Counted from the stretch's first letter, positions 11,807 through 62,828 are shown. The stretch: DNA of 64,000 bases from an uncultured Chloroflexia bacterium (GCA_963751075.1 CAVVTE010000012.1:8149-72148), one strand, 5' to 3'. Notes: generated from the letters alone by a model not told the origin. Numbers and translations are program-made.

Positions 11807-12572
11807 GTGACGATCATGGACCACTTCCCCAGGGTGGGCGAGGAGCTGCTGAGCGCGGACGACGTCGCCCGCTACCTCGAGCTGGAGCCGGTGACCATCT
11901 ACCGCTGGTGCCGGGAGGGGCGCCTGCCCTGCATGAAGCTGGGCAAGGTCTGGCGCATCCGCCGCACCGCCCTCGAGACCTTCCTGCGCCGGGCCGAGCA
12001 GCCCCGGACGCTGACCGCCCATCTGGGCGCCTTCTTCGCCGTGCCCGACCAGGTGCTCGCCGTCGCCGAGGACGCGGCCCTGCTGGCGCGCCTGGACGCC
12101 GCCGTCTTCCAGGTCGCCGAGGCGCGCGACGCGCTGCTGGTCAAGTTCTACGACCCCACGATGGCGCCGCGGGAGGAGCTGCGGGCCGGCTTTCGGCGCG
12201 AGGGACTGGAGATCGAGCGGCTGGAGGGGGCGGGGCGCTTCCGCTGGTGCCCGGCGGGCGACCCGGCCGGCGCGGTCGCCTCCCTGCGCCATCTCCTGAG
12301 CGAGGAAGGCTCGGCGGGACGGCCGGTATGGGTCGTCTTCGACTGGCTGGGAGAGCCAGAGTTGGACGCGGCATTGCGCCAGCAGGCGGAACTGGCCGAT
12401 CTGGTGGCGACGTACCCGCTTGGTGGTCACGACCGGGGTGGTGGCGCCGGCGCCGCAGGAGTGGCCGTCGCCGGAGTCCCAGTGGCAGCTGTTGGGATCG
12501 TTGCGCGGCGTCATCCGCTACGCGTCGACGGGTCTCCTGTTGAGTCGGGTGGTCTCGTCGCTCGAGGCGTAA
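11807..12572 (+). pseudogene. excisionase/MerR-type HTH fused to a MEDS-like (DcmR-type) domain; apparent frameshift near 12415
   Basis: N-terminus is LLSADDVARYLELEPVTIYRWCREGRLPCMKLGKVWRIRRTALETFL. After ...ATYP the listed frame turns Gly/Ala-rich. Frame 0 instead reads LVVTTGVVAPAPQEWPSPESQWQLLGSLRGVIRYASTGLLLSRVVSSLEA* and ends at TAA 12570-12572. Confidence 0.6.
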
Positions 12573-12641
12573 GGCCAGGGGTCTCGCCGCGCGAGGCGTA
12601 AGCCAAGTGGTACCGCCGCTCGAGGCGTAAGCCCAACGGTG
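12555..12641. repeat. 3 x 29-nt imperfect tandem repeat, each unit carrying ...GAGGCGTAAG (the stop-codon region of the HTH gene)
   Basis: Anchor GAGGCGTAA occurs at 12564, 12593 and 12622. Confidence 0.8.
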
Positions 12642-12708
12642 ACCCGAGCACAACCGGGGACGTGGGCCGACACCTGTCGCACCCCCGTCTCGACGATCGT
12701 CGCCGGCA

Positions 12709-12762
12709 AAAACGGATGCATCCTTTGCACCGAGCACTCCCTATCCCCAGCCCTGCTCCCTA
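12709..12762. repeat. direct repeat of 11588-11640 (contains the GGATGCATCC half of the bipartite motif, lacks ACTACACC)
   Basis: CGGATGCATCCTTTGCACCGAGCAC is identical in both copies, and similarity continues ~25 nt further. Confidence 0.6.
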
Positions 12763-12932
12763 TGAACGCCCCTCACTCCCAACCGCCACTCAGCGAGTGG
12801 GAATGAGGGGCCGTGAACACACCGACGGCGCGCCCGAAACGATGCGCGCCGTGGGCAAGATGTCAGATTCCGCGTGTCCTGGCGCGCTCCCTCGCGCCGG
12901 TCGTTGGTCAGTTACGGGCCACTGATCGGTGT

Positions 12933-12962
12933 GGGTCGCGATTCTCGCGGGAATCGCGACCC
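12933..12962. terminator. 11-bp hairpin (GGGTCGCGATT / AATCGCGACCC) followed by GTCCTTCTT, downstream of Cys-rich gene 4
   Basis: Inverted repeat read from the sequence. Confidence 0.4.
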
Positions 12963-13043
12963 GTCCTTCTTACACCCACCGTACGAGAGAACTGAGCCCC
13001 AGCTCCGAGTGAGCATCTGCGCGACCCGCTCCCTGATCGTCCA

Positions 13044-13919
13044 TTACACCGCCGCCCGACAGAACTGCGCTCCGGCTCCTGTGGTAGCGGGATCACACGC
13101 TCCAGAGCAGCACCCTGGGTTCGTCCCACTGGCTGGGCAGCCGCCCGGAGCAGGATTCGCGTTGACTACGCAGCAGCGGCCGTCACCCGGCGCTCCGGTA
13201 GGAGTTTCACAAATCATGCCCAGGCCCGGCGGGTCTGTTGGGCAGCATGTACCCAGGCTGTTTGCAGCGGTTAATACGCATGTCTCGGTTGCGAGCGAAC
13301 AGCAGACATCGGTCGCACCATTTTCAATGCATGTCCGGCCCTGGCAGCATGTGCCCTGCGTGCCAGGGGTCGTGCACGTCGCGCCACCGGACCGGCACGT
13401 CGAACACTCGTTGGCGGTGTCGGCGAGTGGTCCCGTCGTGGACCCACCGGCGTTACAGATCCCGGAGCAGCACTGCCCATCCGCGGTGCAGGCCGCGGTC
13501 AGGGCCAAGCAGTCCTCCTCGTTACAGGCATTCAGATTCGGTTTGCAGGTCCCGGCCTTCTTGCTCCCCGGTGAGCAACAGATTTCCCCGGGCTTGCACG
13601 CCCCGCCGCATTCCGGCGGCGGTGGTGGTTTCGGCGTCTTGACGCACTTGCCCTTATAGTCATACGGGTGCTGTCGCAGGTGCCGCCTGGCCTTTTTCTT
13701 CGAGAATCGCTTGGTAACGCAGCCGATCTGCTGGGGATTGTTGTCACCACAATGGCAGATCGTCCGTTTGCGCCGGTGGGCCTCGGTCTCCTCAGGCGCG
13801 AGGCTCGCGCCCGTCAGCGCCGCCACGGCTCCCGCGGCCAGGCCCTGCAGCACCCGCAGGCGGCTGAGCCGCGTGCGGCTGAGACCCTTGATCAGGTTAT
13901 CAAACGTCGTCCCGTCCAT
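13044..13919 (-). CDS. Cys-rich secreted protein family member 4 (intact)
   Basis: MDGTTFDNLIKGLSRTRLSRLRVLQGLAAGAVAALTGASLA...TICHCGDNN...KKKARRHLRQHPYDYKGKC, then a Pro run and a >30-Cys Gly/Thr-rich domain. A single open frame of 291 aa. Confidence 0.8.
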   Translation of the reverse strand: MDGTTFDNLIKGLSRTRLSRLRVLQGLAAGAVAALTGASLAPEETEAHRRKRTICHCGDNNPQQIGCVTKRFSKKKARRHLRQHPYDYKGKCVKTPKPPPPPECGGACKPGEICCSPGSKKAGTCKPNLNACNEEDCLALTAACTADGQCCSGICNAGGSTTGPLADTANECSTCRSGGATCTTPGTQGTCCQGRTCIENGATDVCCSLATETCVLTAANSLGTCCPTDPPGLGMICETPTGAPGDGRCCVVNANPAPGGCPASGTNPGCCSGACDPATTGAGAQFCRAAV

Positions 13920-14041
13920 TGCTTTCTGGTCCTCTCATCGTCACCGTCGGGCTGTGTCGGCTGGCCCTCATCGGCCATCCATTGATTTCTGGTCTTTTCG
14001 TCACCGTCGGGTGTGTAGGGTGGCCCTCATCGGCCGTCCAT
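13917..14041. repeat. tandem duplication (63 + 59 nt) of the start-codon region of Cys-rich gene 4
   Basis: TCCAT plus upstream sequence recurs at 13917, 13980 and 14039. The upstream copies read ATG GAT/GAC GGC CGA TGA. Confidence 0.8.
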
Positions 14042-14236: not shown

Positions 14237-14267
14237 ACTACACCGGGCCCGCGCGATCGGATGCATC
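14237..14267 (-). promoter_or_regulatory. bipartite upstream motif copy 4
   Basis: ACTACACC at 14237-14244 and GGATGCATC at 14259-14267, spacer 14 nt. Confidence 0.6.
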
Positions 14268-14351
14268 CGGTGCTCTGGGACCGGTCGGAGGCGGGGTTGA
14301 TCCAGGGAATCCAAACGTCCGGGGGCGGTGTATATACAAAGGGAAGTAGCA

Positions 14352-14469
14352 AGTGATTGTAGTAAATCGGGTTCGCGCGGCCAGACTTCCCCACGGAAAC
14401 GGGTGTCACGCTTGGTTATAGTAGATCGGGTTCGCGCGGCCAGACTTCCCCGCGGAAACGGTTGTCACG
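14352..14469. repeat. 2 x 59-nt imperfect tandem duplication (intergenic)
   Basis: ATCGGGTTCGCGCGGCCAGACTTCCCC occurs at 14366 and 14425. Confidence 0.8.
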
Positions 14470-14663
14470 CTGGAGTCTCGTCGGCTCCAACGTCGCCTCT
14501 GATCCGCCGCGAGCCCGTGGTGGATCGATGGACTGTTGGTGATCGCTCGGTCCGGCGGCAGAATGGCTCGAGGTGGAGCAGATTGTCGAGCAGCGCTGCT
14601 CGAAACACTGTCGATGCAATCTTCGCGCTGTTCAAAGCGCCAGCGGCGCGGCCGGGAGAATTC

Positions 14664-15218
14664 ATGGTGCTGTTCCGACACATTCAAGGGCTGGTGCTCT
14701 GGAGCCTGCTGACGGCGTTGCTGGCGTTCACTGTGGTGCCAGTGGCGGCCCAGAATATTGGGTACTTCGGCAAGAATCGGCTGGAGTTCGCGCAAGTCGA
14801 CTCAGATTCGCTCCCGGATGCGACGGGAACCGGCATCGTCGACTACAAGGGCGGCAAGGAGCCGTCGTCGCAGTGGCGGGCATCATTTCGATTTACGGGG
14901 CTTGAAGCGAGAGCAAGCTATACCGTCGTAGTCAAAGGCCGGTTTGGCGACCGGGGCTCCCCGGAAGAAGATGTCCTTTCCCCGTTGTGCTCATTCACGA
15001 CCGACGCCGCTGGGGAGGGGAGCTGCTTCTGGTATTTCCGGGGCCTGGCGCGGCTCAATCTGGTGCAACTGCGTGCAGGGGACGAAAGCGGCTCCCGGGT
15101 GCTGGAGGCGAGCCGCGCTGGCGAGCTCGGCTCGATCGAGACAGAGCCCAACCGCTTCTCGCCGGGCGGGGAGATCCCAGCGCACAAGAAATCCCAGAAC
15201 GGCAGGGATTCCCAATAA
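14664..15218 (+). CDS. secreted hypothetical protein (signal peptide)
   Basis: ATG at 14664 follows GGGAGA. N-terminus is MVLFRHIQGLVLWSLLTALLAFTVVPVAAQN. No family recognised. Confidence 0.6.
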   Translation: MVLFRHIQGLVLWSLLTALLAFTVVPVAAQNIGYFGKNRLEFAQVDSDSLPDATGTGIVDYKGGKEPSSQWRASFRFTGLEARASYTVVVKGRFGDRGSPEEDVLSPLCSFTTDAAGEGSCFWYFRGLARLNLVQLRAGDESGSRVLEASRAGELGSIETEPNRFSPGGEIPAHKKSQNGRDSQ

Positions 15219-15428
15219 GGGGGGTCCGCCCGCACCCCCTGGCTCGGCAGACCCAGAACGGCAGGAATTCCCAATGAGGGTGGGTGCGCCCGCACCCCCG
15301 GTTCGTCAGACCCGGAACGGCAGACACTTCCAATGATGGTGGGTGCGCCCGCACCCCGGTTCGTCAGATTCGGAACAACAGGAATGCCTAATGAGGGGGA
15401 TGCGCCCGTACCGAGGATCGTCAGACGC
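15195..15428. repeat. 4 x 58-59-nt tandem array; each unit repeats the last codons plus a stop (TAA/TGA) of the preceding gene
   Basis: Anchor GAAC(G/A) occurs at 15198, 15257, 15316 and 15374 (GAACGGCAG in units 1-3, GAACAACAG in unit 4). Units end ...CCAATAA, CCAATGA, CCAATGA, CTAATGA. Confidence 0.85.
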
Positions 15429-15466: not shown

Positions 15467-16468
15467 TCAATCGATGCCGGCAGGTGGGATGAGTAGCGCT
15501 GGCAAGGGTGGCGGCAGGGCCGCGATTTCGGGTGAGAACGCTCCGCCAAGCACCATATCAGAGGTGGGGACGGCGCTTCCCGTCTGTGGCTCGGCAGTGA
15601 GGGCGACCCCGACATAGTCGGTGAAGGGACCGGGAGTCTGGAGTAACGCGCGAATCTCGCCGTCGGCTGCGGCGGGCAGCAGGCCGGCGCTCTGTTGCGT
15701 GTTTTGCGTCGTGAACAACCACACCTGATAGCGCTGATCGTGCGGCAGCACCGGCAGCCCGTTGGCGACCAGATACACCTCACGTCCTGTCGGCTCGGCG
15801 AAGACGACGCCGCCCGCGGCCACCGGCAGGTCACTGTCATCCAGCGGGTAGGCCGTGGCCGGATCACTCACCAGGGCGGAGATGTGATCATCCTCGATGA
15901 CCGCGTTGCGCTCATCGTAGCTCCAGGCCCCAAGTCCGCTGACCAGGAAGATCGCCGCCGATGCCGCCACGAGCGCCCAGCGTGGGGGCGGTTGTCCAAA
16001 CGGCAGACGGCGGCGGCTGTCGGCGTCGGCGTCCAGCCGCTGCCCAACCTCGTCGCTCGGATGCGGCCCAGCAGTAACACTGGCGGGAATTACCTCCCGC
16101 TGCCCGACCTCGCCGCTTGGTTGCGACTCAGCACTGATACTCGCAGCAATTACCTCCCGCTGCCCAACCTCGCCGCTCGGATGCGGCCCGGCAGTGACAC
16201 TCGCAGGAGTTAGCGCTTGACTGTTGGCGGCTGGACGTTGGGTGGCCGCCCGCTGGAGGATTGAGTCGCGCAACCAAGGTGCGGGTGGGGGAACAGCAGC
16301 GAGCACGCCGAGGACGTCCATCGCATTGTCCAGCTCGCGGCGACAGGTGGGGCAGGTGTCCAGATGCCGGGTGACTCGGCGCAGGCTGGTCTCGTCCAGT
16401 TTTCCCAGGACGTAGTCAGGCAGCAGGGCAACGATCGTGAGATGATCTCTCGTGGCCGTGTCTAGCAT
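15467..16468 (-). CDS. anti-sigma factor (zinc-finger HxxxCxxC N-domain, one TM segment, RskA-like C-domain)
   Basis: Starts MLDTATRDHLTIVALLPDYVLGKLDE...HLDTCPTCRRELDNAM, with TM segment WALVAASAAIFLVSGLGAW. Lies directly downstream of the ECF sigma gene. Confidence 0.75.
   Translation of the reverse strand: MLDTATRDHLTIVALLPDYVLGKLDETSLRRVTRHLDTCPTCRRELDNAMDVLGVLAAVPPPAPWLRDSILQRAATQRPAANSQALTPASVTAGPHPSGEVGQREVIAASISAESQPSGEVGQREVIPASVTAGPHPSDEVGQRLDADADSRRRLPFGQPPPRWALVAASAAIFLVSGLGAWSYDERNAVIEDDHISALVSDPATAYPLDDSDLPVAAGGVVFAEPTGREVYLVANGLPVLPHDQRYQVWLFTTQNTQQSAGLLPAAADGEIRALLQTPGPFTDYVGVALTAEPQTGSAVPTSDMVLGGAFSPEIAALPPPLPALLIPPAGID
16038..16210. repeat. 2.9 x 60-nt in-frame tandem repeat inside the anti-sigma gene (20-aa units PSGEVGQREVI.AS..A..)
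   Basis: TGCCC(A/G)ACCT occurs at 16041, 16101 and 16161. Confidence 0.85.
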
Positions 16469-16523: not shown

Positions 16524-17288
16524 TCAAACACTTCGCCAGCCTGTGTCGATGCCGAGCGCCGGCAGCGCCTCACGGAGGGTGCAGAGGGCCCGGCGCATCC
16601 GCGACTTGACGGTGCCGAGCGGCTCGCCCAGGATCGCCGCAATCTCCGACTGACTATATCCCGCCGCGTACAACGCGAGCACGGCACGCTGAGCCGGCGG
16701 CAGCTGGTCGAGCGCGTGGACTAGCCCGGCATCGCGGACCGCGCACCACGCGTCTGCTGCTGGATCGGGCCCCGGTTCAACGCATCCAGCATAGGCGCTG
16801 CCGTCTGGATCGGCGTCCGCGTCCCGGCCCTGCAGCTGCGGCCGCCGCCGCCGGCGGCGCAGCTCGTTCAGCGCCAGGTGGTGGGCGATTCCGTGCAGCC
16901 AGCAGCGGACCGAGCCGCGGGCCTCATCAAAGGTGTGGGCCTGTTGCCAGGCGCGGAGGAAGACCTCCTGCAGAAGCTCCTCGGCCGTCTCTCGATCGCC
17001 GACGATGCGTACGAGCAGCGAGAAGACGACCCGGACATGGCGGTCGTAGAGTGCGCCAAGCGCCTCGGTTTCGCCGGCCACGAGCGCGGCCATCAACGCG
17101 TCATCCGGCACATCGTCGTGCGGCAGTGCGCTAAGCGATTGAGCCGGATCACCGCCAGGAGCCGGCGGCACGATCCGCAATCGCGGCGTTTCTGGGGCTG
17201 TGGGCGCTGCTGGCGCCTCGCCGGTGGGGTCACGCTGGTGGTGCTGACTCACGTTGCCCAGTCCGATGGTTGGATCGTTCGAGGTCAC
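16524..17288 (-). CDS. ECF-type RNA polymerase sigma-70 family factor with an N-terminal extension
   Basis: Region 2 reads LYDRHVRVVFSLLVRIVGDRETAEELLQEVFLRAW. Region 4 reads LPPAQRAVLALYAAGYSQSEIAAILGEPLGTVKSRMRRAL. Start codon is GTG. Confidence 0.85.
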   Translation of the reverse strand: MTSNDPTIGLGNVSQHHQRDPTGEAPAAPTAPETPRLRIVPPAPGGDPAQSLSALPHDDVPDDALMAALVAGETEALGALYDRHVRVVFSLLVRIVGDRETAEELLQEVFLRAWQQAHTFDEARGSVRCWLHGIAHHLALNELRRRRRRPQLQGRDADADPDGSAYAGCVEPGPDPAADAWCAVRDAGLVHALDQLPPAQRAVLALYAAGYSQSEIAAILGEPLGTVKSRMRRALCTLREALPALGIDTGWRSV

Positions 17289-17382
17289 TCGGTTACTCGG
17301 CGGCCACGGCTTTGTAGCATAGTCCGATGGTTGGATCGTTTGAGGTCACTCGAGTTACTCGGCGGCCACGGATTTGTAGCAT
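17260..17382. repeat. tandem duplication (61 + 62 nt) of the sigma-factor start region (first 9 codons plus ~34 nt upstream)
   Basis: AGTCCGATGGTTGGATCGTT occurs at 17260 and 17321. The upstream copy encodes an 18-aa uORF (17293-17349, MTSNDPTIGLCYKAVAAE*) that ends 4 nt before the real GTG. Confidence 0.85.
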
Positions 17383-17452
17383 ATCAGGATTTCGCGAACC
17401 TCACGCCTTCGGCATCCCGCGGGATACGCGTCAAGACCGATAGATGACATTG

Positions 17453-17568
17453 ACGAGACTATCGAGGTCGGCATCATTCGCCGTCCATGTCTGGCGGGCC
17501 AAGCAGATTGGCGAGAGTATCGAGATCGGCATCATTCGATGTCCAAGTCTGGTGGGCAAAGCAGCTGG
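17453..17568. repeat. 2 x 58-nt tandem duplication; on the minus strand each unit ends a reading frame with ...PPD(L/M)D(I/G)E-TGA
   Basis: TATCGAG(G/A)TCGGCATCATTCG occurs at 17460 and 17518. Confidence 0.8.
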
Positions 17569-17809
17569 TTGATCATCCCTTCGCTTTGCGGGCAAAGCCA
17601 GGGGCATCTCGGAGCCAGGACGGGCCGCTTCGGTAGAGAGTGCTCCATCGGAACCCCATATGAAGACGGTGGGGACCAGTAGTCACTGCCCAGTTTGGAA
17701 CCGCGCAGCTGATCCGCGAGACCGGATGCTTCCAGGCTCGCAGGAAGCGCATGAGCTGTGCCACCCGTGCCTTCGTCCTTCCTGGGCCCTGGAGCAAACG
17801 ATGGTGGAC

Positions 17810-17925
17810 ACCGGAATCAGCTATGCAGCGTGCGACGAGCCCTGGAAATGCGGCATTCAGCTCATCAACCGGGATCAGCTATGCAGCGTGCAACGAGCCC
17901 TGGAAACGCGGCATTCAGCTCATCA
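17810..17925. repeat. 2 x 58-nt tandem duplication
   Basis: ATCAGCTATGCAGCGTGC occurs at 17816 and 17874. Confidence 0.85.
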
Positions 17926-17985
17926 TGCTGGAACGTGAATCTCGATTCGAGTTGGAGGCGATTCAGCTCTCACGAACGTCGCGTG

Positions 17986-18103
17986 GGAGGCACTCCGAGA
18001 GGTCCAACCTGCCGCGTGCTTCGAGATCCTGGGCCAGGGCTTTAGGAGGCACTTTGAGAGGTCCAACCTGCCGCGTGCTTCGAGATCCTGGGCCAGGGCT
18101 TCG
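17986..18103. repeat. 2 x 59-nt tandem duplication
   Basis: GGAGGCACT...GGTCCAACCTGCCGCGTGCTTCGAGATCCTGGGCCAGGGCTT occurs at 17986 and 18045. Confidence 0.85.
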
Positions 18104-18373
18104 AGGATGCGCGAAAGCGGCCCATCTTCAGCCCATCGCTGGAAGAGCGGGTGGCGGCCTGGTAATTTTGAAAATCAGGACCGTTAGGTGAGGTGATGCG
18201 AAACACTCTGAGCGCTCAAGCGTTTCAATGCATGTTGATGGTTGTTCCATATCGTGTGAGACCGTCTGAGTCGTTGCGCGGTGTGGAACGGATCATGCTG
18301 GAATGGAGCGACTGGTGAGGGGTTCCGTCGCCCCGCTCACCCCGCGCATGCCATGAGAGAAGGGGGAACCACG

Positions 18374-19108
18374 ATGCACGAGAACCAAAGCAGCCGGCGA
18401 GGGCTCCGCACCCGCGGCGTAGCCACTAGGACGGCGAAGCTCGCCTGTGGCGCGGCGCTCACCGCCGCATTGCTGGGGGCTGGGTTCGCTCAGCCGGTCG
18501 CGGCTCAAGACGATGACACAATTGTGCTGACCGCAGGTGGCTCCACGCTCACGGTCAGCCCCGGGAATGCGTCTGCGGTCTCAGCTGTGGCCGAAGCCCA
18601 CGCCTCCCCTGGCCACGCGGAAACGATCGCCGCCGGCGCGCGGGCCGTTGCCGACTGCGAAGATGGCGCGTTGGCTGAAGGCTCAGCCGCCCTCGCCGTC
18701 GCGCATCCCGACGAGGGAGCGCTCACTGAGGCGTCCCTTCCTGTTAACCTCGACGCGGCCGCGATGGTGGATGAGATCACTGCCCAGGCCCTAGCCAACA
18801 GCAACAACGATGGCGAGCCCGTCCGCAAGGTTGTCGAGAACAGGTGCCACGTGGACAAGGAAGAGAAGAAGGCTCCGCCCATCAAGGAAGAGGCTCCACC
18901 TGAAGTCGTAATCGAGGTCCCGGTGGAGGCCCCGGTGGCTCCTCCAGTACAGCAACTGCCGGACACCGGAATCGGTATGGCGGGCGCGGCTGGACTCTCT
19001 TCGCTGCTCGCTGCCGCTTCCGCGGCGGCGGCACTCGGCTCAGTGGCCCTGCGCGGCCGGCGTGAGACCGGGCAGCTTGCTCTGCAGACCAGGAGTCTTG
19101 ACGACTAA
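18374..19108 (+). CDS. surface protein with signal peptide and C-terminal LPDTG sorting signal
   Basis: GAAGGGGGA lies before the ATG at 18374. N-terminal region TAKLACGAALTAALLGAGFAQPVAAQ. C-terminus is LPDTG + hydrophobic stretch + RGRRE. Confidence 0.75.
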   Translation: MHENQSSRRGLRTRGVATRTAKLACGAALTAALLGAGFAQPVAAQDDDTIVLTAGGSTLTVSPGNASAVSAVAEAHASPGHAETIAAGARAVADCEDGALAEGSAALAVAHPDEGALTEASLPVNLDAAAMVDEITAQALANSNNDGEPVRKVVENRCHVDKEEKKAPPIKEEAPPEVVIEVPVEAPVAPPVQQLPDTGIGMAGAAGLSSLLAAASAAAALGSVALRGRRETGQLALQTRSLDD

Positions 19109-19142
19109 TCAGTTGCTCGAGGCTAATGAGAACTAGCAAGGA

Positions 19143-19171
19143 AGCGGGGCGGCCAACCTGGCCGCCCCGCT
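19143..19171 (+). terminator. GC hairpin (AGCGGGGCGGCC / GGCCGCCCCGCT) after the LPDTG gene
   Basis: Inverted repeat; a second 17-bp hairpin lies at 19184-19223. Confidence 0.5.
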
Positions 19172-19378
19172 TCATGTCCAAGATAGGAAACGCCGCTCGC
19201 AAGATTCGAGCGGCGTTTCCTATGTTCTGAGGCCCCATTCGACCGAGTTCTGGGCGCGATCCTCTATCTGTTCACGACGAATCAACCGCCTGGAACAGTT
19301 CATGCTCCTTTAACGCGCTGGGGAGCGCTGGGAGTCCACGCTATCCGCCCCGCGAATTCAGATACAGGGAGTCCCACG

Positions 19379-20206
19379 ATGCAACACGGCAAGAGCAACG
19401 AGTCACCGCTCCTGACCCGCACGGCAACGACCCGCCGCGCCGCAATCTACGGTACCGCCAAACTGGCTGCTGGCGCGGCGCTGACTATGTTCCCCGCCAG
19501 TCGCTGGGCGCAATCCGCTTGGGCTCAGGAGGATTCGGTCATCCTCATCGCCGGCAGTGGCGCGGAGGTCAGCGCCAGCCCTGGATCTGCCGCGGCACGT
19601 GGTGCCGCCGCCGAGGCGGTTGCCGCTCGCGGGGCCGCACGGGTTCAGGCTGCGGCGGCGCTCGCCGAAGCCGATAGTGAAGATGGCGCCATCGCCCAGG
19701 GCGCTGCCGCCGTGGCGGCGGCAGATCCCGACGTCGGGGCCGTCGCGCAGAGTGCAGTGGCAGTTGCCTCCGCGTCCAGCGAGGATGACGCCCCGGAGGT
19801 GGCGGCCCCACAGGCAGCCCAGGCTGCCCCGCAAGCCGTTGCTCCCGCCGCTGGCGGAGGCGGAGGTGTCCGCCGGATTCGAGGCGGCGGTGGTGGCGGC
19901 CGTGCTCGCGGTGGCGGAGGTGGCGGGCGTGTTCGCGGCGGTGGAGGTGGCGGCGGTGGCCGCGGCGGTGGACGACGGGAGCGTGCCGGCATGGGCGGCG
20001 GCGGCGGGCGTGACCGAGAGCGCGGGCGCGACCGAGCCGCATCACTGCCATCGGCTGGAATCGGCCTGGAGAAACCGAGTCCTTTGACGTCGTTCCTGGC
20101 GACGGCTTCGGCCGCCGCGGCCGCGGGTGCGGCGTTCTTGCGCTTCCGTGGTGAAACCGCTCAGCCGGCGGAAGCCGTCATTCCTGTCGAAGACCGATCC
20201 GTTTGA
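19379..20206 (+). CDS. paralogous surface protein with a Gly/Arg (RGG-like) tract and C-terminal LPSAG sorting-like signal
   Basis: N-terminal region TAKLAAGAALTMFPASRWAQSAWAQ resembles the preceding gene. Contains GGGGGVRRIRGGGGGGRARGGGGGGRVRGGGGGGGGRGGGRRER. C-terminus is LPSAG + hydrophobic stretch + RFRGE. Confidence 0.65.
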   Translation: MQHGKSNESPLLTRTATTRRAAIYGTAKLAAGAALTMFPASRWAQSAWAQEDSVILIAGSGAEVSASPGSAAARGAAAEAVAARGAARVQAAAALAEADSEDGAIAQGAAAVAAADPDVGAVAQSAVAVASASSEDDAPEVAAPQAAQAAPQAVAPAAGGGGGVRRIRGGGGGGRARGGGGGGRVRGGGGGGGGRGGGRRERAGMGGGGGRDRERGRDRAASLPSAGIGLEKPSPLTSFLATASAAAAAGAAFLRFRGETAQPAEAVIPVEDRSV

Positions 20207-20350
20207 CCGTAGGCTGGCCGTTGTGCCAGCGCCGAGCGTAACCAGTATCCGAGAATGCGGGACCTGATGTGACCGGGTCCCGCACTCTCGGCTGTATCCT
20301 ACGCACGAGTCGCAATCGCGACTTTCCGGGACCCGGATCACTATTACGTA

Positions 20351-20584
20351 AGGCGTGCCTTCATGCCGATGCCACGAGGCCCGCGTCATCTGACTGAAGC
20401 GGACAGGTGAGGCGTGATTCATGCCGATGCCACGAGGCCCGCGACACGTGACTTGGAGCGAACCGGTGAGGCGTAGCTCATGCTGGTGCCAAGAGGCCCG
20501 CGTCATCTGACTGGAGCGAACCGGTGAGGCGTGGCTCATGCCGATGCCACGCGGCCCGCGTCAACTGATTGGAGCGGACAGGTA
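20351..20584. repeat. 4 x 58-59-nt imperfect tandem array (intergenic)
   Basis: Anchor CATGC(C/T)G(A/G)TGCC occurs at 20362, 20420, 20479 and 20537 (CATGCCGATGCC in units 1, 2 and 4; CATGCTGGTGCC in unit 3). Units abut with no unique spacers. Confidence 0.85.
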
Positions 20585-20630
20585 GGGATGGGTTGCGATT
20601 CACCGACGGGACCACAGATGCGACGACCCG

Positions 20631-21617
20631 GTGCACGGGACTAACAGTGGGCCCGGGTGGGGCCGCCGCATCACTCTGGAGCGAATCGAGGCAGCGGCGG
20701 CTGGCATCGATCCTGTCTTCCTGAATACCCCGCAATGGATCTGCGAGTCGCTCGGTGAGGAGCTGGGCGCTCGTGTTGCGCTGAAAGCTGAGACGCTCAA
20801 TCCGATTCGTTCCTTCAAAGGACGGGGCGCGGATTGGCTCGTGCAGCATCTGCCACCCCGGGCCTCGCTGATGTGCGCCTCTGCCGGCAACTTCGGTCAG
20901 GCAATGGCCTACGCCTGCCGGGCGCGAGGTGTGCCGCTGGCGGTCTACGCGGCGGAGACCGCGAACCCGTTGAAGATCGCGCGCATGCGGTCCCTGGGTG
21001 CACGGGTCGTGCTCGCCGGTGAAGATTTTGACGCCGCCAAGGCGCTGGCGCGCGAGGAAGCGGCGCGAGAAGGGATTCGCTTCGTCGAGGACAGCCGAGA
21101 TCCCGAGCCAACGGAGGGTGCGGGCACGATCGGCCTGGAATGGCTCAGGTTCCCGGAGCGGCTGGATGCCCTCCTCATCCCGCTCGGCAACGGGGCGATG
21201 CTGGCCGGGATCGCCACGGTGATCAAAGCGCGTCTGCCCGGGACTCGCGTCGTCGCGGTTGGAGCTGCCGGCGCGCCGGCGATGGTCGAGTCACTTCAGT
21301 CGGGACGTCTCGTCACCCACGACGGCATCGACACCATCGCGGACGGTATTGGGGTGCGGATCCCGGTGCCGGAAGCTCTGGAGGATCTGCGCGATCTGGT
21401 CGACGACCTTCTCCTGGTGCCGGATGATTGCATCGTCGACGCCATGCGTCTCTTGCACAGGCACGCTGGGGTCGTGGCCGAGCCATCGGGCGCCGCCGGT
21501 CTTGCTGGTGTGCTGCAGGAGCCTGAGCGCTTCTCGGGAATGACTGTTGGTACGGTGATCTGCGGCAGTAACCTCACCCCGGCGCAGATGCGAGAGTGGC
21601 TCGACGAGCCATCGTGA
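20631..21617 (+). CDS. PLP-dependent threonine/serine dehydratase-family enzyme (Trp-synthase beta fold)
   Basis: NPIRSFKGRGADWLV contains the PLP lysine. Also has SAGNFGQAMAYAC and a C-terminal GGN-type loop. The start codon is uncertain. Confidence 0.7.
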   Translation: MHGTNSGPGWGRRITLERIEAAAAGIDPVFLNTPQWICESLGEELGARVALKAETLNPIRSFKGRGADWLVQHLPPRASLMCASAGNFGQAMAYACRARGVPLAVYAAETANPLKIARMRSLGARVVLAGEDFDAAKALAREEAAREGIRFVEDSRDPEPTEGAGTIGLEWLRFPERLDALLIPLGNGAMLAGIATVIKARLPGTRVVAVGAAGAPAMVESLQSGRLVTHDGIDTIADGIGVRIPVPEALEDLRDLVDDLLLVPDDCIVDAMRLLHRHAGVVAEPSGAAGLAGVLQEPERFSGMTVGTVICGSNLTPAQMREWLDEPS

Positions 21618-21720
21618 CCCGGAAGCGTCCCACGCGTAGCGGTTTCGACGCGTTCGCTATAGACGAGCCATCGTGACCCGTTAGCGTCCCGCGCGTAGCG
21701 GTTTCGACGCGTTCGGTATA
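21603..21720. repeat. 2 x 59-nt tandem duplication that includes the last 4 codons and the stop (GACGAGCCATCGTGA) of the dehydratase gene
   Basis: GACGAGCCATCGTGACCCG occurs at 21603 and 21662. Confidence 0.85.
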
Positions 21721-21733
21721 GGGGGAGAGGATC

Positions 21734-22675
21734 GTGCTCGCGTTGCATGGCGTGGCCAACATCAACGGCGAATTCGTCCCCGCGCAGGAAGCGAGCGTCT
21801 CGATCTTCGACAGCGGCTTCATCGGTGGCGTGTCGGTGTTTGATACGCTGGCGTGCTCGATCTTCGATGAGTGGCGTCATTGGTGACGTCTCGGTGTTTG
21901 ATACGCTGGCTTGCTGGGAAGGTAGGCTATTCAAGCTTCCTCAACATCGGGCCCGCTTCGAGCGCTCGGCGCACGCGGCAATGATTCCGCTCCGCTGCGC
22001 AGGCGCAGAGTTGGAAGCTCTCATCGTGGAGACGACCTGCCGCGCGGGATTGCGCAACGCATACGTGCAGGCTATCGCCACCCGCGGCCGGCGCCCGTCC
22101 CCGTCCATGCCGTCGCACGAGCCGACCCTCATCGTCTACGCCATTCCCTACCTTAGTCTCTGGCCGGAGGAGAAGGCGGACACGGGGATCAGCCTCGTGA
22201 TCCCTTCGATCCGGCAGTGGCCCGCCGCCGTCGTCGACGCCAAGATAAAGAATTTCAACCGGATGCATACCCATCTAGCGCGGCTGGAGGCGGACCTCGC
22301 GCACGCGGACGATGTGGTGCTGCTCGATGACCGGGGACTGCTGACCGAGAGCCGCGGGGCGAACGTCTTTCTCGTGCGCGGCGGCGCGCTCTTCACCCCG
22401 CGAGGCGGCATCCTGGAGGAATCACCCGGGAGACCGTCTTCGAGATCGCCGCCGAGTTGGGCATCTCTGCCGAGGAGCGCGATCTCACCCCCTACGATCT
22501 CTACACTGCCGAGGAAGCTTTCCTCTGTAGCACCGCTGGGGGGATTTTCCCCGTAGTGGAAGTTGATGGTCGACGTGTTGGCAGTGGTCTTCTCGGGCCG
22601 GTGACCACCACGATCCGGAATCGCTACTGGGAGCGTCACTTGAGCGGTCCGGATGTGACGTGGGTGCTGCCCTGA
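21734..22675 (+). pseudogene. class IV (branched-chain/D-amino-acid) aminotransferase-like gene disrupted by an internal 57/58-nt tandem duplication and a second frameshift near 22420
   Basis: GTG at 21734 follows GGGGGAGAGG. The sequence reads ...SIFDSGFIGGVSVFDTLAC then SIFDE..VIGDVSVFDTLACWEGRLFKL. The middle part is ORF 21747..22556. The C-terminus GISAEERDLTPYDLYTAEEAFLCSTAGGIFPVVEVDGR is ORF 22457..22675. Confidence 0.7.
21800..21914. repeat. 57 + 58-nt tandem duplication inside the aminotransferase coding sequence
   Basis: TCGATCTTCGA occurs at 21800 and 21857. Confidence 0.85.
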
Positions 22676-22765
22676 CGCCAAGAGTGCCCATGAGAAGCAG
22701 ATCACGGACCGGGCTGTGGGCGTACTCATCAGTTCACGGTGCACAGGATAGGGGGCCCTTGCCGG

Positions 22766-23814
22766 ATGTCGAAGATCTTTTCAGACGCTGATGCTCAAGT
22801 GAGCCAGCGGATCGGGGTTGCGGATCTGCACAGCGATCTGCCGTTGGGATTGCTCAAGCGGCGGTTCGATGGGCAGAACGGGTCCCTGCGCACCGAGTGG
22901 CTACCACGACTGCGCGCCGGCGGTGTTCGCGTCGTCGTCTGTGCTGTCTACATCGACTCGATCTTTCTGCCCGAGGGCGCGCTGCGCCGCGCGGTGCAGC
23001 TCGTCGATGCGTTACTCGAAGAGATCGCGACCTGCGCCGATGAGATCGAGCTGGCGGTGTCTGGCCCCGACGTCGAGCGCATTACCGGCCAAGGGAAGAT
23101 CGCGGCAATCCTGGCGTTGGAGGGAGCGGAGCCGCTCGGCCAGGATCTCTCCGCACTGCGGCTGTTCTACCGCCTCGGCATGCGGATGCTTTCGTTCGCC
23201 TGGATGCGGCGGACCGCGTTCGGCGACGGCGCATGGGAAAACGACTCGCGCGGCGGGCTTACCCGTCTCGGGCGGGACGCGGTGCGCGAGATGAACCGGC
23301 TGGGGATCATCATGGATGTCTCCCACGCATCGGATCAGACCACCTGGGACATCCTGGAGACATCGTCGCGGCCGGTGATCGCCAGCCATTCGAACGCCCG
23401 AGCCCTCCAGGTCCATCCACGCAATCTCACCGACGAGATGATCGAGGCGATCGCCGCTTCGGGCGGTCTCGTCGGCGTCGTGGCCGTCGCTGGCTACATC
23501 TCCGATACCGAGCCGACCATCGCGCGGTGGGCTGACCATGTCGATCACATCGTTGAGCTGGCCGGCATCGATCACGTGGGAATCGGCTGTGACTTCTATG
23601 ACGAGATCATGGCTATGGGCGCCTCGCAGGAGATTCCCGGCATGGAATCCCGGCGGCGGGCTCGGCCAACTCTCCTTCGCGGGGATGCGAACCTGGGAAG
23701 ACTTGCCCGGTCTCACCGCGGAGTTGCTCCGGCGCGGCTACACCGAAGCAGATCTACTGCAAGATCTACCGTGAGAACTTCTCCCGGGTGATGGGTGCCG
23801 TGCTAGACGCATGA
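22766..23814 (+). pseudogene. membrane (renal-type, M19) dipeptidase with two apparent frameshifts in the C-terminal part (~23640 and ~23760)
   Basis: VADLHSDLPLGLLKRR, DVSHASDQT and GIGCDFY are typical M19 blocks. The C-terminus continues in ORF 23538..23774 (WNPGGGLGQLSFAGMRTWEDLPGLTAELLRRGYTEADLL), then KIYRENFSRVMGAVLDA* in a third frame. Confidence 0.7.
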
Positions 23815-23855
23815 CGCGTGGCAGTCGCCCGCCCGCAAAAGCGACGTATTCCTGG

Positions 23856-23884
23856 TTGACACAAAAGAACACATGTTCTATAAT
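23856..23884 (+). promoter_or_regulatory. perfect sigma-70 consensus promoter TTGACA-N17-TATAAT
   Basis: TTGACA at 23856-23861, a 17-nt spacer, and TATAAT at 23879-23884. Confidence 0.7.
23866..23879. promoter_or_regulatory. inverted repeat AGAAC-ACAT-GTTCT in the promoter spacer (GAAC-N4-GTTC, LexA/Cheo-box-like operator)
   Basis: Read directly from the sequence. GAAC-N4-GTTC is the Gram-positive-type SOS box core. Which protein binds it is unknown. Confidence 0.4.
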
Positions 23885-23886
23885 GT

Positions 23887-23937
23887 ACGTACGGGGCCGC
23901 GATCAGAAAATGATGATCGCGGCCCCGTACGTTTTAT
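23887..23937 (+). terminator. perfect 18-bp hairpin + TTTTAT beginning 3 nt after the -10 box
   Basis: ACGTACGGGGCCGCGATC (23887-23904) pairs with GATCGCGGCCCCGTACGT (23915-23932), followed by a T-run. Confidence 0.6.
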
Positions 23938-24077
23938 GGCTTCACGGGTCGTTATCCACTTGGCCGTCGCGATGAGGGACGCTGGCGGTCGGCGTGGCGA
24001 AAAGGGTCGCGCTGTTCTGAGACCTGGCACACCTGAATGCCAGGGCCGGCGGTAATCGCCAACGAACAAGGAGAGGC

Positions 24078-25894: not shown

Positions 25895-25962
25895 GACACC
25901 ATCAGCATTGGGCTGGCATTGGCTGCGTTGCGGGGACGCGTGAGCCGCGGCTAGGACACCAT
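25843..25962. repeat. 2 x 60-nt in-frame tandem duplication of the last 16 codons + stop + 9 nt of the permease gene
   Basis: CAGCATTGGGCTGGCATTGG occurs at 25843 and 25903. There are 5 nt differences, all synonymous; both copies encode SIGLALAALRGRVSRG*. Confidence 0.9.
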
Positions 25963-59088: not shown

Positions 59089-59133
59089 CTGTGGAACAAG
59101 AGGTTGCGGAATCGTGTCCCGCTCGGCGCCCCA
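59089..59133 (+). repeat. tRNA-His 3'-half direct repeat 1 (att-like)
   Basis: CTGTGGAACAAGAGGTTGCGGAATCGTGTCCCGCTCGGCGCCCCA matches tRNA-His from the anticodon loop to CCA with 4 mismatches. Confidence 0.85.
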
Positions 59134-59723
59134 GGAACTGCACGGAATAGAGCTATTTTCTCCTTGACCAACATCCTGACTACCGCATGATTTTCCCATT
59201 GACAGAATAACCGGGGAATATTCGATCCAGCATCGACCTCGTGACGCCCGTCTTGGCGGGTCTATTGGTCGCGTTGTGCCTGGAGGCGTCTCCGCATGTC
59301 TCTCTCGAACGATTCGGACGAACCGTCGTCCGATGCTCAAGTCATGGGTGACATTCCGGAGCTTGCGTGTCGCTGTACTTACGCGTTCTGTCCATGCTCG
59401 CAGCCGGTCGTGGCTCGATGCGCCGCACGGCCAGGGCGAGGGTGCCAGCCGGGAGCGCAGCCGGGGCGATCCTGTGCCGGGCGGCTGCGCGTCGTTTCGA
59501 TGGAGCGCGACGCCTGTGCATCCGATCTTGCGTTCCGAGGCGGATCGGGCACATCCTGAGGGGTCTGGCGCGCGGGTTGCGGTTCCGTTGGAGTGGCTCC
59601 GGGCTGCGGAAGGAAACCCAGCTCGCGCCCCACCCGTTGCAGAGGTACGTGTCAGCAGCGATCTGATGGGCGCGGCCACGACCGCGACGACCATCCACGA
59701 TGCCGCTCCCGAGGAGATTGTCC

Positions 59724-60566
59724 ATGAAGAGGTTCATCCTGGTCCTGAGTCTGAGCGCCGGACTCATCGCCTTCAGCCCTGTCGCCCACGCCCAGGAGAG
59801 CGGTGGGCCGGTGATCAACGCCGACGGCACCGACGCCGCCTCGACGGCCGGGCTCAACCCGGTGGACAACGGCACCGGACCGACGCTGATTTACGGCGAT
59901 CTCTCCGCCGGAGCGCCGCCCGTTCCGATTGCCTCGGAACCGGCGCCGGTGGTGACCGATCCGGCACCCGCCCCGGATGCCGCGACAACGAGCGAGCCCG
60001 CGCCCGTGACGGAACCAGCACCCGAGGGCGGACTCGCCCCGGCTCCCGAGGAGACCACCACCACGACCTCAACGGAGCCGGCTCCCGCCGCACCCGCCTC
60101 CGAGACGACAACCACGACGGCGCCGGAGACCACGACCGCTACGGTGAGCGGGGAGCCGGCTCCCGCTCCCCAGTACGACCCGGTCACGGGCCTGGCCATC
60201 GACCCGGCCACTGGCTTGCTCATCGACCCGGTCACCGGCTACCTCCTCGACCCGGCCAGTGGCCTGATGTTTGACCGAAGGACCGGGTATCAGGTCCATC
60301 CGATGACCGGGTTGCTGATCGAGCCGACCACGGGGCACCAACTCGACCCGGTCACGCTGGCGGTGGTCATCCCAGCCGGGTTCGGCAGCGAGACGCCGGA
60401 CTACAACCCGGGCAGCGGGGAGATGCGGGGCACGATCGAGACGGTGGTCGACGATACCTATGACAATGCGACCTACAAAGTCATCCCCGGGACAGATGGT
60501 CCGACGCAGCCGGTCGGGGAGATCATGGTGCCGACGACGCCCGGGGATGCCATCGAAATGTCCTAG
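59724..60566 (+). CDS. secreted Pro/Thr-rich protein with DPxTG(L/Y)L(I/L)DP repeats
   Basis: GAGGAG lies before the ATG at 59724. Signal peptide is MKRFILVLSLSAGLIAFSPVAHAQE. Repeats read YDPVTGLAIDPATGLLIDPVTGYLLDPASGLMFD. Confidence 0.7.
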   Translation: MKRFILVLSLSAGLIAFSPVAHAQESGGPVINADGTDAASTAGLNPVDNGTGPTLIYGDLSAGAPPVPIASEPAPVVTDPAPAPDAATTSEPAPVTEPAPEGGLAPAPEETTTTTSTEPAPAAPASETTTTTAPETTTATVSGEPAPAPQYDPVTGLAIDPATGLLIDPVTGYLLDPASGLMFDRRTGYQVHPMTGLLIEPTTGHQLDPVTLAVVIPAGFGSETPDYNPGSGEMRGTIETVVDDTYDNATYKVIPGTDGPTQPVGEIMVPTTPGDAIEMS

Positions 60567-60625
60567 CCCGTTGCTGGCCTGAACCCGAGGGCCTCATCCT
60601 CGCCGGGCCATTGACCGGGCCCGTC

Positions 60626-60670
60626 CTATGGAACACGAGGTTGCGGGATCGTGCCCCGCCAGGCACCCCA
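60626..60670 (+). repeat. tRNA-His 3'-half direct repeat 2 (att-like)
   Basis: CTATGGAACACGAGGTTGCGGGATCGTGCCCCGCCAGGCACCCCA has 3 mismatches to the tRNA. Confidence 0.85.
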
Positions 60671-60955
60671 GGAATCTCGCACAATGACGTCGAAATTGAC
60701 AAGAGGGCTGGCGAATCGCTAGCTCTTTGTGGCGTTTTTGTGCACGACTGGTGCATGGATTCCGAAGCGGAATTCGGCTCCCGGGACTGTCCCTGATATC
60801 ACCTGGGCCGTACTGAGAGCGTGTGGCAAACCCGACCTGTCTCGGCCACCCCGGCCCGTTCTCGGTGGCGGCGCCAACGAGGGGTGGGACGAAGGTCCGT
60901 CCCACCCCTGACGAGTTTCATTGGCGTGCGAGGTCGAGGTGAATCCCGCTTCGCC

Positions 60956-62429
60956 TCACCCGATGCAGTTCGGCACCTGCGATCCGGAACAGTTGTTCGG
61001 GGTGTTGTTGGTGACGATGTCGGTGGAGCCGAGGGTCACCGTGCCGCCTCGTTGAAAATCCCCCCACCATCGCCGCCAAGCCGTATCCAGGTTTTCAACG
61101 GTGTTGCCTGTCACCTTGGATCCCGCCTCCAGGTTCGCGGTGCCGGTGTTGAAGATTCCCCCGCCATTGCCGCCGGTTCCTCCAACGGTGTTGCCCGTCA
61201 CGCTGCTGCCATCCTGCATCGTCAGTCTGCCGTCGTTATAGATCCCCCCGCCATCGCCGAAGACTGTCGTGTTGCCCGTCACGCTGCTGCCCGTTTTCAG
61301 CGTCAGTGTGCCGTCGTTATAGATCCCCCCGCCATCGTTATTTCCGGTGTTGTTCGTCACGATGCTGCCGGCCTCCAGCGTCGCGGTACCACCGTCGTTG
61401 TAGATTCCCCCGCCGGCAGCTGACCCGTTGCCCGTCACGCGGCTGCCATCCTGCAACAGCAGCGTGCCGCCGTCGTTATAGATCCCGCCGCCGTTGGGTG
61501 CGAAGTTGTCCGTCACGGTGCTGCCGGCCTCCAGCGTCAGCGTGCCGTAGTAGTTGTAGATTCCCCCGCCAGAGCCGAGGACGGCATGGTTGCTCGTCAC
61601 GGTGCTGCCGGCCGCGAGGCGCACCACCCCTCCGTCGTTGTAGATGCCGGCACCCGAGTTGGACACGCTGAGGCCCCGAATGCTCGCTCCCGCCCCCAAC
61701 GTCAGCGTGCCTTCGTTATAGATGCCCGCCCCATTGGCGGGCGCACCGCCGCCGGTGATCGTGACGTCGAGGAGGGTCAGCGTGCCATAGTTGACGAACC
61801 CCCAATAGGACACGTCGCGTTTCGCAATCGCCAGCCCCTGGACCGTTACGGTGGCGCCCTGGGCGACCTCGATCACGGCGCAAATACACCCGGCGTCGTT
61901 CTGCAGGATCGTCTGGTCGGTGCCGGCTCCCACCAGTGTGAGGTTCTTGGTGATGGTGGCAGCGATATCTGGGAAGGTGCCCGCACAGAGGGTCAGGGTG
62001 TCCCCGGATTGCGCGGCGTCGATCGCCGCCTGCAGGTCCGCTCCCGACGGGAGGCAGGAGGTGCCAGAGCCCAGGCCGCCACCTGTCGGCGCGGCACAGC
62101 GGCCCGCCGCATCCGTGACCAGACCCTGGCAGCAGTTCGCGCGGTTGCCGGTCTTGGGCGTCTGGCCGATCGTGGCGCATGAGCCCTTGCTAGTTGCCGT
62201 TGCCCGAGTCCTGGCCGGTGCGCTGCCCCTTCCGGTTGTCCTTGCGGCGGCCCGTGCGTTGACGATTGCGGGCGCTCCGGCGGTGCCGGGGCCCGGCCTC
62301 GCTCTCGTCGTTCAGGAGCGCGGCGAGGGCTCCCGCCAGAGGCAGGGAAGCCCCCAGGCGCAGCAGTCCCCGCCGGGTGCCTGCGGCAGAAAGGGACGTC
62401 ATCAGGCGGTCGAAACGCTCCGTATCCAT
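60956..62429 (-). pseudogene. leader + Arg/Lys linker + Cys module fused to a parallel beta-helix (GGGIYN-repeat, Pmp-like) protein; 1-nt frameshift near 62190
   Basis: N-terminus is MDTERFDRLMTSLSAAGTRRGLLRLGASLPLAGALAAL...RHRRSARNRQRTGRRKDNRKGQRTGQDSGNGN*. The next frame continues SKGSCATIGQTPKTGNRANCCQGL... into ORF 60956..61933, which has repeated GGGIYNDG.L.L..GS.VTGN units. Confidence 0.7.
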
Positions 62430-62704
62430 ACCCTGAATCTCCAGCGTCACGCGGGAACCACGATGGAGGCCGGTTCTCAGCAGCGCGCCGAGCGTGACGC
62501 GGCGCGACCCGGCCGCGGCCAGCTGCTTCACCCGTGCGTCGAACCGTTCTCGGTCCATGGCCCACTACCCCCCGGCGTCAGAACAGTGCCTGGCGGCGCG
62601 CCAGGAGGCCTCAGCGTCGGTGTTCAGCCATGACTCTGCGCGCCGGGGACGGTCCCGTCCATCCGTACATGTACTCAATTGGGAACGCGGCACGTACTCA
62701 TTCG

Positions 62705-62828
62705 CCCCACCACACCCGATTGCAACGCTCCCGCCCATGACTGGACGCGTCGCCGCGGCCACCCCACTACGCCCGATCGCGACGCTCCCGCCCATCGCTG
62801 GACGCGTCGCCGCGGCCACCCCACCACG
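62705..62828. repeat. 2.2 x 57-nt tandem duplication upstream of the beta-helix gene
   Basis: ACGCTCCCGCCCAT occurs at 62725 and 62782. Confidence 0.8.

Follow-up and report, generated by a model that had tools for sequence, protein, structure and literature searches.

The 64,000-nt stretch of DNA analyzed here (the window) comes from an uncultured Chloroflexia bacterium (GCA_963751075.1, CAVVTE010000012.1:8149-72148) and carries 15 head-to-tail arrays of imperfect tandem duplications; 14 of them have a period of 57–63 nt and the remaining one consists of three 29-nt units. The region from 12.5 to 26 kb, about 14 kb in all, holds 13 of the 15 arrays at a density of about one per kb. The arrays fall into one narrow length class, are derived with respect to single-copy relatives, lack homology at most of their junctions and are placed non-randomly with respect to genes. 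Taking together the two processes that could have produced them in the cell (homology-independent duplication and slippage constrained by a ruler), the balance tips slightly toward the arrays being real. The reading that we prefer, tentatively and at somewhat less than even probability, is that they are real, homology-independent duplications of fixed length, made by a ruler-based process and subsequently sieved by selection.

Inventory of the Arrays and Control Survey

Arrays were called with Tandem Repeats Finder (TRF), with an ungapped period scan of our own and by direct copy-by-copy alignment. The methods agree; the 61/62-nt pair at 17258–17380 is absent from the TRF list and is shown by direct alignment. 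A preliminary description of this DNA had reported a very narrow period at many loci, which is borne out by the present calls; its count of at least 16 loci comes down to 15, identical to the 15 that it listed, and the 80–92% identity that it gave for the copies widens to 78–96.5% between adjacent copies across the arrays. Each locus repeats its own local sequence, and the units of different arrays show no similarity to one another in a self-comparison of the window; the arrays are therefore no repeat family, but events of one kind that recur at many loci.

As controls, 161 loci of other genomes were examined, 2.07 Mb in all; they were drawn from isolate assemblies as well as from MEGAHIT, SPAdes and Flye-style ones, and the closest relatives are among them. 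With TRF periods of 57–60 nt, 13 arrays were found in the 64-kb window and none in the 161 control loci. The sole control array of period 63, in locus L014, was considered as a second example and rejected, being an ordinary coding protein repeat of GGGISN type. The array set is statistically extraordinary, and the observation itself is confirmed.

Derived State and History of the Arrays

The genes of the window place the lineage in the Thermomicrobiales, phylum Chloroflexota. Outgroup L161 is collinear with positions 18160–31197 of the window at 82–89% nucleotide identity, L162 and L163 encode M20 proteins 93% and 89% identical to that of the window, and L081, L082, L083, L109 and L001 serve as more distant outgroups. 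The comparison of orthologous loci that the preliminary description had called for gave the same answer at all six arrays with an outgroup (those starting at 16037, 20351, 21603, 21795, 25842 and 39697): the relatives are single-copy. Array 16037 is represented by one copy in L109 and by one unit in each of 14 aligned anti-sigma homologues, array 20351 by one diverged unit in L161, array 21603 by a single copy in L161, L081 and L083, array 25842 by a single copy in L001 and L161, and array 39697 by a single copy in L162 and L163; the outgroups for the four arrays from 20351 to 25842, that at 21795 included, also comprise L082. The 20.9 kb of L161 itself holds no array of the ~59-nt class. Since the relatives are single-copy, the duplications are derived in the lineage of the window, and, if real, they would have arisen in this Thermomicrobiales lineage after its split from the nearest sampled relatives.

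Several arrays retain traces of a history of their own. The anti-sigma factor of the window has 333 aa, to which the array contributes two additional 20-residue units, and this 40-residue insert is absent from all 119 homologues listed (281–313 aa). Units b and c of the array share a derived junction, GAGGTAATT, as opposed to the ancestral GCGCTAACT, which indicates stepwise growth of the array with a change in between. The four units of the array at 20351 fall into two pairs by their shared states, 2 with 3 and 1 with 4, and in the four-copy array at 15193 the distance between copies rises with their separation (0.09, 0.10, 0.18, 0.21–0.28). The five differences between the copies of array 25842, in the ABC-2 permease gene, are all synonymous in the frame of the gene; polarized with the outgroup, three of the changes fall in the coding copy and two in the relic copy. 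In array 39697, at the M20 peptidase gene, each copy holds two derived states when polarized with L162 and L163.

Anatomy of Copies and Junctions

Two-copy arrays total 112–127 nt, and the eight of them that were scored without gaps measure 112–124 nt, i.e., 1.90–2.18 copies; periodicity ends abruptly on both sides of the arrays. Junction microhomology amounts to 0–2 nt in 12 of the 15 arrays. The exceptions have terminal homology of ~10 nt at 62705, of ~5–9 nt at 13915, where it is supplied by a partial third copy, and of GAGG at 20351, a tetranucleotide present at the start of the unit and, in L161, directly after the unit (the right flank in the window reads AGGG). No shared motif was seen at the array boundaries, and a common cleavage motif was rejected on these grounds. 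Folding z-scores of the units range from −1.6 to +1.7 around a mean near 0, so that their secondary structure is nothing out of the ordinary, and hairpin-driven events were discarded because the units are unstructured.

Differences between copies are mainly substitutions, evenly distributed along the unit, with about 17 substitutions per indel. All 12 substitution classes occur, and the transition/transversion ratio is 1.48 between copies and 1.14 between the window and L161, compared with the 0.5 that uniform noise would give. The dispersion index of the differences per array is 1.78 (P = 0.06 against a Poisson expectation and 0.14 against uniform ages), a value compatible with arrays of many ages as well as with a single age or copies diverged from birth.

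These junctions bear on replication slippage or template switching, in which the footprint of a protein on single-stranded DNA (e.g., one unit of single-strand-binding protein) would dictate the length and the products would pass through the same sieve of selection. Single-strand-binding protein has a site size of about 56–65 nt. Slippage shares with the preferred reading the support for real arrays and for the selection sieve, and it would be helped by the terminal homology of the three exceptional arrays; the 0–2 nt of microhomology in the other 12, and units with no propensity to form the hairpins that would stall a fork, argue against it. Slipped-strand mispairing is the accepted origin of bacterial tandem repeats (PMC3287509). 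The minisatellites or variable-number tandem repeats (VNTRs) that it produces consist, like the arrays, of imperfect head-to-tail copies, but they need end homology for the mispairing, which most of the arrays lack. Examples are the repeats of Ehrlichia ruminantium and Wolbachia, which are tens of nt long, mostly intergenic and sometimes duplicate gene ends, with an internal identity of about 88% in these repeat-rich genomes (PMC3287509, Table 4); however, periods in such genomes shaped by slippage are broad (10–378 bp), whereas 14 of the 15 arrays fall within 57–63 nt (PMC3287509). Slippage had been among the explanations offered in the preliminary description, and it is the poorer fit because microhomology is usually absent. 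We know of no slippage process with a 59-nt ruler, and this origin is considered unlikely.

Placement of the Arrays Relative to Genes

Gene models were built from Pfam domains and homology. At four arrays the unit contains a stop codon. The first, 12551–12633 (29-nt unit, 2.9 copies, 15% mismatch between copies), overlaps the stop at 12599–12601 of an HTH_17-domain gene (11807–12601, plus strand; ORF, i.e., open reading frame, and Pfam). In array 15193–15426 (59-nt unit, four copies), copy 1 has the stop codon (15216–15218) of a secreted-protein gene (14664–15218, plus strand) and the remaining copies follow downstream. Copy 1 of array 21603–21721 (59-nt unit, 2.0 copies, 6.7% mismatch) comprises the last four codons and the TGA (21615–21617) of a PALP gene (20631–21617, plus strand), and copy 1 of array 25842–25963 (60-nt unit, 2.0 copies) the last 16 codons and the TAG (25892–25894) of the ABC-2 permease gene.

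Three further arrays have a start codon with its leader inside or adjoining the unit. Array 13915–14041 (63/59-nt unit, 2.1 copies) contains the ATG (13917–13919) and the 5′ leader of a gene for a Cys-rich secreted protein with a twin-arginine signal (13044–13919, minus strand). The pair at 17258–17380 (61/62-nt unit, two copies, differing by four substitutions and one indel) covers the start and the 5′ region of an extracytoplasmic function (ECF) sigma factor gene, which runs on the minus strand from 16524 to about 17252–17288. Array 39697–39814 (59-nt unit, 2.0 copies) includes the ribosome-binding site, the TTG (39712–39714) and the first six codons of the M20 peptidase gene (38494–39714, minus strand; TTG start with an AAGGAG ribosome-binding site), in a divergent intergenic region shared with a DJ-1/PfpI gene (39908–40429, plus strand).

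Five or six arrays are purely intergenic. Array 14360–14471 (59-nt unit, 1.9 copies, 5.7% mismatch) occupies the divergent intergenic region between the Cys-rich protein gene, which starts at 13919 on the minus strand, and the secreted-protein gene on the plus strand. Three arrays, 17449–17564 (58-nt unit, 2.0 copies, 13.8% mismatch), 17810–17925 (58-nt unit, 2.0 copies, 5.2% mismatch) and 17986–18101 (59-nt unit, 1.97 copies, 3.5% mismatch with one CC/TT doublet), share the non-coding stretch at 17.29–18.28 kb, and array 20351–20583 (58-nt unit, four copies) lies upstream of the PALP gene. The sixth would probably be array 62705–62828 (57-nt unit, 2.2 copies, 10.4% mismatch), which has ~10 nt of a third copy and no supported gene at its position. 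The sole array deep in a working gene is 16037–16216 (minus strand, 60-nt unit, three copies), which lies in frame in a linker, variable among homologues, of the anti-sigma factor gene (zf-HC2 and RskA_C domains, 15467–16468, minus strand). Finally, array 21795–21910 (plus strand, 58-nt unit, 2.0 copies) lies inside a class IV aminotransferase gene (21734–22672), the frame of which it shifts.

Only one or two gene-disrupting events are observed among 14, compared with a mean of 9.0 expected under uniform placement over 11.8–43.5 kb, and none of 20,000 random placements was as non-disruptive as the observed one (P < 5e-5); the placement is strongly non-random. A duplication that holds a stop codon, or a start codon with its leader, keeps the protein unchanged, so that survivorship under purifying selection explains the positions at starts and stops without any targeting, and it accounts for the placement better than targeting to ORF ends does. 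The units that the preliminary description had seen on the stop codons of the HTH gene, the secreted-protein gene, the PALP gene (its dehydratase) and the ABC-2 permease gene are all recovered here, as are those on the start codons of the Cys-rich, ECF sigma (start at about 17252–17288) and M20 peptidase genes, the in-frame array of the anti-sigma gene and the broken aminotransferase; a stop codon that it ascribed to a remnant of an insertion sequence (IS) could not be confirmed. The targeting to ORF termini that it proposed is not needed, given five or six intergenic arrays, one in a linker in frame and one that breaks a gene.

The stretch that holds three of the intergenic arrays (17290–18280, between the ECF sigma gene and the next gene) is ~1 kb long and has no supported gene. 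The possibility that these arrays, at 17.4–18.1 kb, break a gene was rejected since collapsing them in all 8 combinations restored no ORF. The distance between the sigma and PALP genes is 467 nt in L109; the window is ~3.4 kb longer here, and the extra DNA is partly shared with L161.

A Ruler-Based Duplication as a Possible Mechanism

The process envisaged here would copy a fixed ~57–63 bp adjacent to itself and would require no sequence homology. In its simplest form, opposite strands would be nicked about 59 bp apart, both 5′ overhangs would be filled in and the ends would be rejoined, and the outcome would be a target-site duplication with nothing inserted, or one that remained after an element had left. 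A later hit anywhere within an array would add one in-register unit, giving the three- and four-copy arrays. Purifying selection would then eliminate gene-breaking events, and the survivors would be those that are intergenic, that contain a start or stop, or that keep the reading frame of a linker tolerant of insertions. Copying during the fill-in may also be error-prone, in which case the new copy would be diverged from its formation. A staggered cut with a ~60-nt ruler was one of the possibilities raised in the preliminary description and gives the best anatomical fit, as most two-copy arrays are near 2.0 copies with 0–2 nt of microhomology; the mechanism (the staggered break, the responsible enzyme, which does not lie in the window, and the error-prone synthesis, all three) is what we infer from this anatomy. 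A stronger statement, that the bacterium has or had a ruler-based, homology-free activity that duplicates ~59 bp in place with error-rich copying, is rather doubtful. The candidate for such an activity would be a nuclease or integrase that cuts the strands ~59 bp apart, after which the gaps would be filled in with low fidelity and the ends joined. Such fill-in would account for a copy diverged at birth, at a very high rate of error; the bacterial LigD polymerase, an unfaithful enzyme, may be a candidate for it.

No precedent for fixed-length duplications of ~59 nt was found in a literature search, and the annotated genes of the window include neither a reverse transcriptase nor a cas gene, nor any integrase of an unusual kind. 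A tyrosine-recombinase remnant considered at 63028–63780 was abandoned, as Pfam gave it no support. A replication origin at the GC-skew minimum (~13 kb) was also rejected: six DnaA-box matches occur against 3.8 expected, none of them in the non-coding stretches.

Comparison with Known Systems

One likeness is to the target-site duplications made by transposases and integrases, which, as the arrays do, have a length set by the enzyme, occur at unrelated sites with no microhomology and start as identical copies in register. They differ in being usually 2–15 bp long, far shorter than the 57–63 bp of the arrays, and in bracketing an element, whereas here the copies abut and no pair of direct repeats of 35–120 nt brackets an element. 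Mycobacterial interspersed repetitive units (MIRUs) are tandem units of 40–100 bp, located in the intergenic regions of operons, that overlap the flanking stop and start codons. MIRU units form one sequence family; the units of the arrays share no similarity. CRISPR (clustered regularly interspaced short palindromic repeats) loci have a repeat plus spacer of often ~57–62 nt, with a repeat of typically 29 nt, and their Cas1-Cas2 integrase, for which off-target integration was considered as well, measures length by a ruler. They consist, however, of conserved repeats and unique spacers, unlike the arrays, which are similar along the whole unit, and the window contains no cas gene, leader or shared repeat. 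The attC site of integrons (the ‘59-base element’) folds as a hairpin from imperfect inverted repeats, which the units of the arrays do not. Mutagenesis of the kind carried out by diversity-generating retroelements was rejected because the substitutions are not adenine-specific and no reverse transcriptase is among the annotated genes.

The Interrupted Aminotransferase and the Possibility of an Artefact

A number of points weigh against real, homology-independent duplications. We are aware of no enzyme that cuts with a ~59-bp stagger, and 13 of the 15 arrays are confined to 14 kb. Every array has at least two differences between its copies, so that fresh duplicates are missing. Long target duplications are on record only for IS1549 and IS1634, where their length ranges from 8 to 514 bp, whereas the arrays are of fixed length (PMC2266710). 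The one intact IS of the window (46810–48241) has a flanking duplication of only 3–4 nt and no element is bracketed by ~59-nt repeats, so that an origin from an IS that makes long target duplications was rejected. Moreover, no DNA of the same species is present in the collections searched, the proteins of the window are singletons on one contig of 146,685 nt and the lineage has been sampled once, which leaves the arrays with no independent confirmation.

The class IV aminotransferase provides further such points. Its gene is broken twice, once by the 58-nt duplication and once by the loss of a single nucleotide from a run of G, and the orthologue in L161 is intact. The protein nevertheless shows 5 residue changes specific to the window against 6 specific to L161, which points to a gene with no relaxed constraint and no pseudogene drift; the frameshift must then be recent, despite a diverged copy 2. 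Copy 1 of array 21795 is 98% identical to L161. Depending on the alignment, copy 2 differs by 6–7 substitutions along with two 1-nt indels (14–16% divergence), and it alters two residues that vary little or not at all among 120 homologues, F29 (present in 118 of 119 aligned homologues) and G32 (119 of 119). Its best match to any orthologue is ≤85%. A foreign allele as its source was rejected, since it matches no known allele and F29 and G32 are altered. This copy was thus either diverged from the outset or is not real, and divergence at birth requires copying with many more errors than known polymerases make.

Beside the array cluster, at 22.4–29.7 kb, four uncompensated 1-nt frameshifts interrupt conserved genes, which also speaks against the preferred reading. 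With respect to the L161 proteins they are located at ~22418 in the aminotransferase (GGG to GG), at ~23634 and ~23758 in an M19 dipeptidase gene (T to TT and one further +1) and at ~29705 in MutL (GG to GGG); at least three of the four are length changes of homopolymers, and short ones. Seven genes at 34.5–43.5 kb are all intact, with no 1-nt frameshift. The 1-nt frameshifts are either consensus errors or very recent lesions. MutL was also considered as a pseudogene with a decayed N-terminus, and this was rejected because the appearance is due to an over-long gene call in L161 and the true N-terminus is conserved.

These observations give substance to an artefact of assembly or consensus, in which contig or read ends overlapping by a length set in the software (~59) would have been joined untrimmed in a strain-variable region of low coverage, so that the two copies of an array would be two versions of one segment, from different strains or from error-prone contig ends. 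In its favor, the arrays are restricted to a single contig of a single assembly, their narrow length is of the kind that a program parameter gives, they cluster within 14 kb beside homopolymer frameshifts in conserved genes, and a copy 14–16% diverged breaks an aminotransferase under normal constraint. Perfect copies are absent, and alleles of co-occurring strains would likewise show natural-looking differences, with derived states in both copies. On the other hand, k-mer overlap joining would give one constant period equal to k or k−1 and identical copies, and what is found is a period that ranges from 57 to 63 and copies that are never identical. Arrays of three and four copies would demand chains of ~59-nt pieces, and the in-frame 60-nt array of three copies shows a stepwise history. 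The avoidance of gene interiors would need the added assumption of joins made in intergenic DNA, and copy 2 of the aminotransferase array is no functional allele of any strain. The 2.07 Mb of MEGAHIT, SPAdes and Flye-style assemblies contain no such arrays, and homopolymer spectra neither flag the window as a noisy assembly nor point to a sequencing technology. Additionally, de Bruijn assemblers would need the copy junction in the reads, and long-read polishers would be expected to strip insertions that the reads lack. Overall, the artefact is a serious rival, only somewhat less probable than the preferred reading.

Another explanation, offered in the preliminary description, is that the arrays are scars of homology-facilitated illegitimate recombination, in which resident and donor alleles overlap by ~59 nt at the joint. 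The all-synonymous differences of the ABC-2 array (five of five), the derived states in each copy and the four of six synonymous substitutions in copy 2 of the aminotransferase array are in its favor, but only two of the five ABC-2 changes lie in the unconstrained copy, so that their synonymy is unsurprising. Where this explanation could be tested, at copy 2 of the aminotransferase array, no matching allele supports it: besides two 1-nt indels, this copy has replacements of F29, which is nearly invariant, and of G32, which is fully so, and its identity to any orthologue is ≤85%. Identity to L161 fluctuates between 0.78 and 0.98 with no step at the arrays, and a switch of ancestry at the arrays was rejected for the same reason. 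Nor does recombination give a reason for a fixed overlap of 59 nt, and such scars are highly improbable.

Significance of the Arrays

If the arrays are real, they would point to a protein-defined ruler acting on bacterial DNA that is so far unknown, and to an undescribed mutational mechanism. Promoters, ribosome-binding sites, gene termini and protein linkers would thereby have a source of variation that is new, and the window would offer a clean natural case of selection sieving a mutational process. If they are an artefact, it is of a kind that common assemblers do not make in 2 Mb of comparable data and that mimics evolution closely (transition bias, in-frame arrays, avoidance of gene interiors); it would need flagging, since false pseudogenes and repeats would otherwise enter public genomes derived from metagenomes.

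Other Features of the Window

Larger-scale paralogy is found upstream of the array cluster, where segments at 71–92% identity pair 1090–1978 with 7916–8804 and 3713–6133 with 9998–11324. It includes two cyanophycin-synthetase-like genes (17–2554 and 7047–9380) and a block of ~1.3 kb that occurs twice and has unannotated genes; the upstream region is therefore duplication-rich as well. A conserved dispersed element is located at 4173–4209, 6050–6086, 11571–11607, 12692–12728 and 14237–14273. Its core, TACTACACC...ATCGGATGCATCC, contains the perfect palindrome GGATGCATCC, and the HTH gene lies between two copies of the element (53 nt, 85% identical); the element looks like a shared promoter or operator.

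Between a SnoaL-domain gene and a DUF4432 gene, a perfect array of four copies of GAGTCGGT (32296–32327) is followed, 86 nt downstream, by four copies of its reverse complement, ACCGACTC (32413–32444), the two arrays forming a long inverted repeat. A related array, 3.6 copies of GGAGTCGA, lies at 33550–33580.

The region at 44–46 kb has a low GC content (0.58) and contains a gene for an Mrr-like nuclease (45154–46071) and an IS. The IS at 46810–48241 is apparently intact, with a DDE_Tnp_1_4 transposase of 428 aa (full-length profile match) and terminal inverted repeats of 20 nt. Four dispersed copies of a sequence of ~45–60 nt, 73–78% identical to the reference copy, are found at 44212–44271, 59094–59153, 60631–60690 and 63445–63504. 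The first overlaps the 3′ part of a tRNA (44176–44248), and the four copies resemble relics of att sites, left by islands that integrated one after another at this tRNA. Finally, seven diverged copies of a 75–87-nt unit, unrelated to the 59-nt class, lie at 61101–61736 and may encode a repeat protein on the minus strand (putative ORF 60956–62311, with no Pfam match).

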